Shown here: in pieces, positions 12,250 through 13,610 of the stretch
Layout: every line of letters starts with the position of its first letter
Numbering within the stretch: position 1 is the stretch's first letter
IMG/VR virus record: IMGVR_UViG_3300032289_002239
Coordinates: 1 to 64,000 of that record
Direction: 5' to 3' (one strand)
Origin: a virus
Taxonomy: Duplodnaviria; Caudoviricetes
DNA length: 64,000 nt
Notes under the pieces: generated by a model
Database searches by the model: none
What the model saw: the letters and a program-made list of their open reading frames with translations, nothing else
Told to the model about the DNA's origin: nothing
Made by a program: the position numbers and the translations under genes

Positions 12250-12269
12250 TCCGGTTATTAGGATTTGAA
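12250..12269 (-). pseudogene. 3' fragment of interrupted tRNA-Pro(UGG)
   Basis: TTCAAAT-CCTAA-TAACCGG-A: T loop, T stem and acceptor 3' strand complementary to fragment 13556-13610. Confidence 0.85.
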
Positions 12270-13555
12270 TATTTTTAATCCGCAATCCCCAATGTATTTA
12301 GGGTCGCTGATCAAAGATTAATTTTACTAAATAATTGTGTAAGTTAAATAATTTTTACCCAAGTGTTAAGACGAGGATTTAAATTTAGATTTTACCCAAC
12401 TAAAGAACAAGAAACCTTGTTGCGTCAAACACTTGGTTGTGCTCGTTTTGTTTGGAATTATTTTCTTGATTTAAGACAAAAATCTTGGAAACAAGAAAAT
12501 AAGTCATTGTCTTACTATGATACCGCAAAACTACTTACTCAACTTAAAAAAGAACCAGAATACGTCTGGTTAAATGATGTTTCTATTATTCCTTTAAGGT
12601 ATTCGATTTATGAATTAGATGGAACATATAAAAAGTTCTTCAAGGGCAATTGTGGTTATCCAAATTTTAAAAAAAAATCTGGAAGAAACTCAATAGGTCT
12701 TGACGGAAGTGCTTTTAGGGTAAAGGATGGTAAATTCTTTATTGCTAAAAATAAGCAACCTCTAAACATTAAATTTCATAGACAGCTACCACAAAATCAG
12801 GAAATCAAGTATATCTATATATCTCTTGAACCTTCCGGAAAGTGGTATGTGTCTTTTAATCTTGAAGATCTGTCTATTCAACCTCTACCCGAAAGTCAAA
12901 ATCAAATTGGAATTGACCTTGGAATAACCACCTTTGCTACAACTTCTAACGGAGACAAAATCAAGTCACCGGATCTAAAGAAGGAGTATAAAAAACTCAA
13001 GAAACTCCAAAGAAGATTTTTTAAAAAACAAAAGGATTCCAACAATAGAAATAAATCAAGACTTAAAGTCGCAAGACAGTATGAAAGAATTAGAAATATT
13101 CGTTCTAATTTTCAACATCAGGTCTCAAGAAAACTAGTCAACGAAAACCAAGTTATAGTTCTTGAAGACTTAAAAGTAAAAAACATGATAAAGAACCGCA
13201 CATTATCAAGAGCAATTAGTGAACAAGGCTGGTATCAATTCCGGTCCTTTCTTGATTATAAATGCAATTGGTATGGAAGAAAATTAATTGTTATTAACCA
13301 ATGGTATCCAAGTTCTAAAACTTGTTCTTCTTGTGGTTCTATTCAACCTAAAATGCCGTTAAACATTAGAGAATGGACTTGTCCTGATTGTGGTTTAGTT
13401 CATGATAGAGATATAAATGCGGCGAAAAATATTTTGGCGGTAGGAACTACCGTGTCTGCCTGTGGAGATAGTGTAAGACCAAAAACTCGTAAAGAGTCGG
13501 CGGCAGCTTCTATGAAGCAGGAAACCGAGAAGTCTTTGGTTTCTCGGTAGTTCAT
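12270..13555 (+). mobile_element. TnpB-only IS200/IS605-family element inserted in the tRNA-Pro T arm
   Basis: Precise excision restores the tRNA; preceded by TTGAA, ends in hairpin + TTCAT; no target-site duplication; no tnpA. Confidence 0.88.
12363..13550 (+). CDS. tnpB: RNA-guided endonuclease TnpB
   Basis: N-terminal HTH, RuvC GIDLG / LEDL / DRDINAA intact, CSSC...CPDC zinc finger; CTAAATA late promoter upstream. Confidence 0.95.
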   Translation: MLRRGFKFRFYPTKEQETLLRQTLGCARFVWNYFLDLRQKSWKQENKSLSYYDTAKLLTQLKKEPEYVWLNDVSIIPLRYSIYELDGTYKKFFKGNCGYPNFKKKSGRNSIGLDGSAFRVKDGKFFIAKNKQPLNIKFHRQLPQNQEIKYIYISLEPSGKWYVSFNLEDLSIQPLPESQNQIGIDLGITTFATTSNGDKIKSPDLKKEYKKLKKLQRRFFKKQKDSNNRNKSRLKVARQYERIRNIRSNFQHQVSRKLVNENQVIVLEDLKVKNMIKNRTLSRAISEQGWYQFRSFLDYKCNWYGRKLIVINQWYPSSKTCSSCGSIQPKMPLNIREWTCPDCGLVHDRDINAAKNILAVGTTVSACGDSVRPKTRKESAAASMKQETEKSLVSR

Positions 13556-13610
13556 CCTAAATTTTTCCTCCTCCCAAAGGAGGTGCCATACCAAGTTAGG
13601 CGATAACCGG
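13556..13610 (-). pseudogene. 5' fragment of interrupted tRNA-Pro(UGG)
   Basis: CCGGTTA-TC-GCC..GGC-A-CCTCC TTTGGGA GGAGG-AAAAAT-TTAGG. Confidence 0.85.

Follow-up and report, generated by a model that had tools for sequence, protein, structure and literature searches.

In a freshwater T4-like cyanophage, a tRNA-Pro(UGG) gene is precisely split by an IS200/IS605-type element that carries tnpB, and the guide predicted for the encoded TnpB matches an element-free allele of the same locus exactly. The DNA analyzed (the window) is the first 64 kb (positions 1 to 64,000) of a 127-kb IMG/VR record, IMGVR_UViG_3300032289_002239, for which the CheckV completeness estimate is 55%; among named phages, it is closest to B3, B23, and S-SRM01, freshwater Synechococcus phages of the Kyanoviridae. 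Cas12 descends from TnpB, whose natural role is still under study. Judging from sequence, it is plausible, at about an even chance, that the element described here takes part in RNA-guided homing, or a gene drive, among co-infecting or replicating phage genomes.

The intact window contains a single tRNA by ARAGORN, a tRNA-Arg at 10155-10229. When positions 12170-12269 were joined to 13556-13700 by script, thereby deleting 1,286 bp (12270-13555), ARAGORN called a canonical 75-base tRNA-Pro(tgg) on the minus strand with a complete cloverleaf and a UGG anticodon. The tRNA is interrupted at canonical positions 53|54, where the 5' arm of the T-stem meets the T-loop, and the element is oriented antisense to it. 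Its boundaries are unambiguous, as the left flank ends in A, the element begins and ends in T, and the right flank begins with C. Insertion occurred 3' of a short motif without target-site duplication, and the flanks are exact when compared with the empty allele described below (contig L075). The end motif of the element, TTCAT (13551-13555), differs at positions 3 and 5 from TTGAA, the predicted target-adjacent motif (TAM); the TAM and the element-end motif (TEM) of ISGst elements likewise differ at positions 3 and 5 (Meers et al., preprint). A reading made earlier from the letters of the window alone (the sequence-only reading) had proposed the precise split of tRNA-Pro(UGG), its restoration upon deletion, the TTGAA on the left, the TTCAT end, and the lack of a duplication, and all of these were borne out by the ARAGORN call, by the exact flanks, and by L075, whose alignment to the window breaks at 12269|13556. 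The features of the locus and its surroundings are collected in the table.

Features of the split tRNA-Pro locus and of the related elements nearby (window coordinates)
Feature	Coordinates	Strand	Basis or remark
tRNA-Pro(UGG) 3' fragment (T-loop, T-stem 3' arm, acceptor 3' arm, discriminator), 20 nt	12250..12269	-	ARAGORN on joined flanks; contiguous in L075
Predicted TAM TTGAA, reverse complement of T-loop positions 54-58	12265..12269	+	Last 5 nt before the element
tnpA-less IS200/IS605-type element, 1,286 bp	12270..13555	+	Exactly missing in L075 and in one X2 contig; sister copies elsewhere
Element left end, with decayed subterminal hairpin (~12287-12305) and CTAAATA (12327-12333)	12270..12362	+	Folding; copy comparison
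tnpB, 395 codons plus stop	12363..13550	+	Pfam; ISDra2 TnpB alignment; GTG taken as start
omegaRNA scaffold-like region overlapping the tnpB 3' end, ending in the right-end hairpin and TTCAT	13369..13555	+	Conservation; predicted pairing
Predicted omegaRNA guide, antisense to the tRNA	13556..13575	+	Position; IS605 rule
tRNA-Pro(UGG) 5' fragment (acceptor stem through T-stem 5' arm), 55 nt	13556..13610	-	ARAGORN on joined flanks; L075
Second tnpA-less TnpB element, ~1,389 bp	15094..16482	+	Missing from L006-L009; left boundary uncertain by 1-2 nt
tnpB2, 398 aa, 42% identical to TnpB1 (the product of tnpB), triad motifs present	15265-16461	+	Sequence comparison
5'-truncated remnant of a related element	10355..10542	-	Last ~58 TnpB codons plus the whole omegaRNA-like region

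The predicted protein is a TnpB with an intact RuvC triad. It matched the Pfam families HTH_OrfB_IS605 (3.5e-21), OrfB_IS605 (4e-28), and Cas12f1-like_TNB (4.8e-28), all above the curated cut-offs, and aligned over residues 4-373 with ISDra2 TnpB of the PDB entries 8bf8/8exa (phmmer E 4.2e-62). D185, E268, and D350 align with D191, E278, and D361 of 8bf8_A, the catalytic RuvC residues, and CxxC motifs are present at 321 and 340. That RuvC is intact, as proposed earlier, was confirmed by this alignment; a nuclease-dead TnpB repressor of the TldR type was ruled out, as all three RuvC residues are kept. GTG was taken as the start codon; five codons upstream, the ATA of the window is replaced by ATG in L069, a contig with a sister copy of the element. 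No Y1 transposase (PF01797) was found in the 127-kb, 55%-complete record, in agreement with the earlier statement that the element has no tnpA.

The gene and the region at its 3' end are both under constraint. Pairwise ratios of nonsynonymous to synonymous divergence (dN/dS) for tnpB were 0.10-0.14, and all four distinct full copies of the element (4/4) have open frames of 398-401 codons. Synonymous divergence in the last 65 codons was 0.27-0.57, compared with 0.64-1.07 elsewhere in the gene, and the last ~190 nt of the element contain runs of tens of bases that are invariant, synonymous sites included, in all five aligned copies. Because of this low dS and these invariant blocks, we consider the last ~190 nt to be conserved beyond coding needs. 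Of the 58 pairs that RNAalifold predicted in the region, 5 show compensatory changes, for the most part within the terminal hairpin before GTAGTTCAT. No Rfam family matched it at the gathering score or at E values up to 1. By its sequence, the region has the look expected of an omegaRNA scaffold, for which it is a candidate.

Under the IS605 rule, the guide derives from the flank beyond the right end of the element (Meers et al., preprint), and the guide that the sequence-only reading had placed in the right flank fits that rule by its position. The 20-nt flank at 13556-13575 occurs once in the 127-kb record, where it is preceded by the end of the element and not by TTGAA, so the record contains no self-target. 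Within the phage's own record, then, the proposal that TAM plus guide exists only in the uninterrupted gene holds.

An element-free allele was found. When 241 million metagenome records were scanned with 28 nt of the right flank, a single contig was recovered, L075 (1,203 bp), whose copy of the locus lacks the element; in IMG/VR, 37 nt of the right flank had no exact match beyond the record itself. By blastn, L075 aligned to the window in two pieces, 12110-12269 (98.1% of 160 nt) and 13556-14596 (83.2% of 1,044 nt), and ARAGORN found an intact tRNA-Pro(tgg) in it. The sequence-only reading had pointed to relatives with an intact tRNA-Pro at this locus, and L075 is such a relative, with the alignment break exactly where the element would be removed. 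Its right flank is identical to that of the window, predicted guide included, over at least 80 nt. The two tRNAs differ at 1 of 75 positions, a T-to-C change at 12265, which is TAM position -5 and corresponds to A58G in the T-loop; A58 is an upper-case position in the Rfam tRNA consensus. L075, the sole fully read empty allele, therefore has CTGAA instead of TTGAA. Over 332 compared flank positions, L075 and the window show 4 differences, and by our own arithmetic the chance that at least one of four differences strikes the 5-nt TAM is ~6%.

Both alleles also appear in metagenome runs. Logan contigs of four runs (X1 to X4; X1 is possibly the source sample, and X3 is from a different study) were aligned to positions 11900-13900 at 90% likeness. 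The occupied allele was bridged by contigs at both junctions in X1 and X3 and at the right junction in X2, while in X4 the left junction was bridged in a strain that is 6.5% diverged (34 differences in 522 nt). Beside the occupied-allele contigs of X2, one contig (depth 5.1) linked 12269 straight to 13556, skipping exactly 1,286 bases, and a 44-nt unitig had its end exactly at 12269. We accept this joint because its coordinates match the prediction and L075 to the base. From the unitig ends, for which no sequence is printed, we infer that TTGAA is intact in the X2 empty allele, whose 30 bases up to 12269 are shared, and that this allele differs from the X2 occupied allele at 13557, guide position 2, where the occupied allele has T and not C. 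Each empty allele would then differ from an occupied one at a position relevant to targeting, L075 from the window in the TAM and X2 from its co-occurring occupied allele at guide position 2, a pattern that is suggestive with n = 2. No listed contig linked 12269 to 13556 in X1, X3, or X4; contigs drop rare variants, so empty alleles may exist there.

From ~13832 onward, inside the neighboring metallophosphatase gene, the window undergoes an abrupt switch of haplotype after ~275 nearly identical bases, differing from L075 and the X2/X3 contigs at 16 shared positions within 37 nt. Of the 20 variants listed for X2/X3 in the right flank, 16 are also present in L075. The switch looks like a recombination boundary; a co-conversion tract was rejected as its explanation, as the same boundary is found in the empty allele.

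The closest relatives of the record in IMG/VR, L006-L009, are element-free and 80-94% identical in the flanks. At the syntenic site (4890-4960, minus strand, in L006, and likewise in L007-L009) they have a 71-nt gene resembling tRNA-Pro(UGG), in which the T-loop (GGCAGUA) is non-canonical and the D-arm is odd; it scores 36.2 bits with Rfam and is missed by ARAGORN. This gene has no TTGAA on its opposite strand, and its sequence is very unlike that of the window's tRNA. Phage B3 has an annotated tRNA-Pro-TGG in the syntenic place, preceded by the same conserved upstream sequence, with the tRNA itself diverged. Among 62 loci recovered through the metallophosphatase gene, only L006-L009 were syntenic at the split-tRNA site; TnpB was found in 0/62, and an ARAGORN tRNA in 1/62 (L060, tRNA-Ala).

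The element belongs to a family found elsewhere in viral contigs. Four to five sister copies, 81-86% identical at the DNA level over their whole length, occupy three other sites, one shared by L068, L069, and L078, one in L070, and one in L071. The 5 nt to the left of the copies are TTGAA in the window and L070, ATGAA in L071, and TTAAA in L068/L069. Excision in silico from L069, L070, and L071 restored no long open reading frame (ORF) or tRNA (junction frames of 61 aa, none, and 96 aa, respectively), and these three insertions look intergenic or close to gene ends. Exact searches for empty sites of the sister copies returned occupied alleles only (L076, which is the L071 contig, and L077-L079, which include the new L078). 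In one genome each of 185,579 prokaryote species, the best match to TnpB was 34% identical, in a search that detects close relatives only and has little to say on distant hosts. Among the best 120 metagenome protein clusters, 59 were 74-90% identical, the next was 67%, and the remainder were at most 60%. Given the lack of a close match in these prokaryote genomes and the 59 clusters at 74-90% among the 120 listed from metagenomes, the TnpB lineage looks phage-borne.

The copies differ at their left ends. A subterminal hairpin is strong in L069, L070, and L071 (dG -8.4 to -10.2, z -3.1 to -4.3). The window copy has lost this hairpin (dG -2.0, z +0.77) and keeps the one at its right end (dG -10.8, z -3.5). 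Intact ends are required for excision by TnpA (Meers et al., preprint), and with its left-end hairpin decayed the window copy is therefore probably no longer excised. The decayed left end thus favors TnpA-independent copying by cutting and repair, or vertical descent, over restorative homing.

Within that left end lies a motif that also occurs throughout the window. CTAAATA is present 35 times, compared with 21.5 +/- 4.4 times in shuffles, and 23 of the 35 occurrences fall between genes, in a window whose non-coding share, by a crude gene call, is just 13.7%. Eighteen of the 35 are both intergenic and no more than 80 nt upstream of the start of a same-strand ORF, mostly at 13-37 nt and chiefly on the minus strand. 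In its placement CTAAATA behaves as a promoter motif in the source phage, and the same heptamer is the reported late promoter of the T4-like phage Aeh1 (PMC1524935). The plus-strand motif at 12327-12333 stands 29 nt before the tnpB GTG (29-30 nt across copies) and is kept in 3 of the 4 element copies, L071 having ATAAATA. From this arrangement, tnpB is probably expressed from a phage late-type promoter motif kept within the element. The earlier suggestion that tnpB follows a phage late promoter is upheld at the level of the motif, by its intergenic enrichment and its retention in three of four copies. A second suggestion, that an outward CTAAATA at 12295-12301 on the minus strand might drive the gene downstream of the broken tRNA, did not hold up, as this motif is present in one of four copies, inside the decayed hairpin, and is 86 nt from the next minus-strand start, versus the usual 13-37 nt.

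The homing model that we consider plausible begins from what is observed, an IS200/IS605 element with only tnpB and an omegaRNA-like region, sitting immediately 3' of TTGAA, the reverse complement of the T-loop TTCAA. By the IS605 mechanism, the omegaRNA transcript would start in the 3' end of tnpB, cross the right end, and take its guide from 13556 onward, and the TnpB-omegaRNA complex would recognize TTGAA plus the right flank. Its target would be restricted to uninterrupted alleles because TTGAA and the flank exist together only there. In mixed infections, or among the copies of a replicating genome, TnpB would cut such alleles, and the recombination-dependent replication typical of T4-like phages would repair them from the occupied allele. 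The outcome would be an element copied without TnpA and competitors damaged, that is, 'non-restorative homing' or a gene drive, which may be likened to free-standing homing endonucleases. Homing is supported by an intact and constrained TnpB, a conserved omegaRNA-like region, the lack of a tnpA in the record, a guide-matched empty allele, and the promoter motif. The sequence-only reading had directed this homing specifically against intact alleles of co-infecting phages, a proposal that fared unevenly: the empty joint beside occupied-allele contigs in X2 speaks for it, while the only empty allele that is fully read, L075, matches the guide exactly but has a changed TAM at -5. Single-base TAM changes abolished cleavage by GstTnpB2 (Meers et al., preprint).

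Several observations weigh against homing. The family is found at four different sites in viral contigs, so TnpA must have acted in trans at some time, and a tnpA could be encoded outside the recovered part of a genome that is only 55% complete. The ATGAA and TTAAA left flanks of sister copies bear on the true stringency of the TAM. Potential targets may be rare, because the tRNA-Pro-like gene of L006-L009 is very different and unmatched by the guide. The occupied allele of X2 has drifted at 13557, which suggests no strong selection for a match between guide and target. In the X2 joint, the shorter side is 30 letters long, equal to the k-1 overlap of unitigs and at the warning limit of the tool, which also warned of the 90% likeness. 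Finally, the TAM change in L075 is a single observation, with the chance of ~6% given above.

The element may instead be a passive passenger, inserted once through a host TnpA acting in trans at a chance T-loop pentamer and inherited vertically since, with no role in phage competition and with empty alleles that simply represent lineages never hit. This is possible, if doubtful in our view. Such an insertion would need no special cause, since TTCAA is inherent to tRNA T-loops; a tRNA is the site of only 1 of 4 full copies; L075 and the window are distinct strains (83% over the right 1,044 nt); and the X2 occupied allele has a drifted guide base. However, purifying selection on TnpB in four diverged copies and the additional constraint on the omegaRNA region point to retained activity, a phage-type promoter motif is conserved within the element, and the close matches of TnpB are in metagenome clusters (59/120 of those listed, at 74-90%) versus none in the 185,579 species genomes (best 34%, in a search for close relatives only). 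Ordinary restorative homing, in which the TnpA of a host insertion sequence (IS) excises the element during infection and TnpB, as in bacteria, only re-cuts the resulting donor joint to bring the element back from sister genomes, would agree with the published function of TnpB (Meers et al., preprint) and with a family that has moved to several sites, and the X2 empty allele could be an excision product. We consider it unlikely for the window copy, given the loss of the left-end hairpin where intact ends are required for excision (Meers et al., preprint), the lack of a tnpA in the record, and the divergence of L075, which is a different strain and not a fresh excision product.

Two further explanations would leave the tRNA functional or the insertion unreal. 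IStrons unite IS605-type elements with group I introns (PMC4227781), and the window element resembles them in being an IS605-type TnpB element within a gene, so the insert might be removed at the RNA level, or the tRNA halves joined. This is very improbable: in contrast to IStrons, the element has no evident means of restoring the tRNA, as a permissive Rfam scan of 9500-17500 (E up to 1) detected no intron or ribozyme, the element is coding except for 93 nt at its left end and 5 nt at its right end, and it is antisense to the tRNA. Because no intron-like RNA was detected in that scan, the tRNA-Pro of the source phage is most likely inactivated. The insertion could also be a chimera created when an IS copy was assembled into a phage contig: metagenome assemblies are often broken or wrongly joined at repeated IS copies, and the X1 contigs do break within the element at ~13460. 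Nevertheless, with both junctions bridged in X1 and again in X3, which belongs to another study, the right one in X2, and the left one in the 6.5%-diverged strain of X4, we assign an assembly artifact a negligible probability.

The homing idea is an application of a published model and is not new, and the window element is an ordinary member of its family whose natural setting is unusually informative. Karvelis et al. (PMC8612924) established that TnpB is a guide-RNA nuclease, and Meers et al. (preprint) described its cleavage of donor joints. A close likeness is to ISDra2 TnpB-omegaRNA of Deinococcus radiodurans (PDB 8bf8, 8ex9, 8exa, 8h1j), which has the same domain order, a similar size, and aligned RuvC D/E/D and zinc-ribbon cysteines, and with which the window element would also share a guide from beyond the right end and a 5-nt TAM to the left, both predicted here. 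However, ISDra2 has a tnpA and resides in a bacterial chromosome, whereas the window element lacks tnpA and resides in a lytic-type phage, with a late-type promoter motif and a predicted TAM of TTGAA. TnpB-only IS200/IS605 elements in T4-like phages were described in 2010 (PMC2853527): ISCaje1-3 of the Campylobacter phages CP220 and CPt10 likewise have related copies at different sites, but belong to a different host group and were described before the nuclease role of TnpB was known; the available passages of that account report no tRNA disruption and no analysis of empty alleles or guides. More recently, a 2026 preprint discussed a tnpB in cyanophage A-1(L), without a homing mechanism.

Spread without TnpA has an experimental precedent in multicopy plasmids, among whose copies IS605 spreads by the action of TnpB (PMC11870625). 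There, TnpB cuts the IS-free copies of the replicon, and the population is biased toward IS-bearing copies independently of TnpA, in what has been treated as gene drive or non-restorative homing (PMC11870625, PMC13565253). Co-infecting phages are named as theoretical targets of 'transposon non-restorative homing' in Table 1 of a 2026 review (PMC13565253). The plasmid drive is therefore experimental and the phage case theoretical, while the window locus is a natural phage site at which both alleles are observed. T4 SegB is similar in being a nuclease whose gene lies in the tRNA region of a T4-like phage, that cuts the tRNA genes of relatives, and that is preferentially inherited in co-infection (as related in PMC13565253 and PMC2853527). 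SegB, however, recognizes DNA through protein contacts and interrupts no tRNA, whereas the window element would be RNA-guided and itself splits its target. Our literature search, in a limited collection, returned no report of a TnpB element splitting a phage tRNA, or of natural empty and occupied phage alleles.

Homing after excision has been demonstrated in bacteria and gene drive in plasmids, and spread between phages has so far been a stated possibility. This locus offers a natural test case, with an occupied allele, a guide-matched empty allele, and an empty allele whose TAM is changed at a normally invariant tRNA base, together with a copy that lacks the left-end hairpin needed by TnpA and two more TnpB-related elements nearby. 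If the proposed drive exists, the genomes of T4-like phages would be shaped by RNA-guided nucleases as well as by the protein-guided Seg and Mob endonucleases, and tRNA genes would be predictable battlegrounds, because T-loops carry the TAM.

Those two further TnpB-related elements lie within 6 kb of the split tRNA-Pro. The second element has CTAAATA at 15161 and 15234, both before tnpB2, and a flank guide at 16483-16502. L006-L009 lack it precisely, and the match between their empty site and its right-flank guide extends over at least 38 nt; because of this match, the second element too supports the logic of homing. L072 contains a 78%-identical relative, and the right ends of both of these elements finish in TTAC; for the left end of the second element, no alignment to L072 was obtained. 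In L073, a 7.8-kb viral contig, two TnpB genes on opposite strands are 61% and 48% identical to TnpB2.

The other is a remnant (10355-10542) that shares 76% aa identity with TnpB1 residues 336-393 and is fused in frame to a phage ORF (10369-10797). It aligns to the right end of the element, including GTAGTTCAT, keeps the 8-bp terminal stem, and has a flank guide of its own (10335-10354), for which a search found no matches. The remnant sits at a synteny breakpoint beside the tRNA-Arg, the synteny with L006 beginning at 10543. A second, independent 5'-truncated remnant of the same family, with the omegaRNA-like 3' part kept, is present in L080 (11376-11773). The two remnants could be orphan guides or simply the debris of deletions.

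Taken together, the elements permit a broader but tentative reading, which we judge to be on the improbable side, in which a phage-adapted, tnpA-less TnpB/omegaRNA lineage with late-type promoters serves T4-like cyanophages as RNA-guided homing endonucleases and weapons between phages, with a T-loop TAM, escape alleles, and guides supplied in trans. Were such a lineage real, the universally conserved tRNA T-loop would provide the TAM, and intact alleles would escape either by TAM mutation, despite the invariant A58, or by seed mismatches. The omegaRNA-only remnants in the window (10355-10542) and in L080 (11376-11773) would then be extra guides acting in trans with the resident TnpB, a step toward a guide array.

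A minus-strand gene for a Thg1-like tRNA-His guanylyltransferase (11201-11974; Pfam PF04446, 2.1e-28) stands between the tRNA-Arg and the split tRNA-Pro, and a segment spanning 11023-12018 is missing from L006/L007 and present in L008. A partial, sub-threshold tRNA match at 9500-9553 on the minus strand (23.9 bits, E 0.2), clipped by the edge of the search range, may be another decayed tRNA; across the whole window, it gave no match at the gathering score. In S-SRM01 (L002, 2843-4505), psbA (D1) is annotated in two pieces around a 'putative site-specific DNA endonuclease', and further homing and HNH endonuclease genes are found in the psbA neighborhood. Because of this split psbA and the endonuclease genes around it, we regard the region as rich in selfish nucleases in relatives of the source phage as well.

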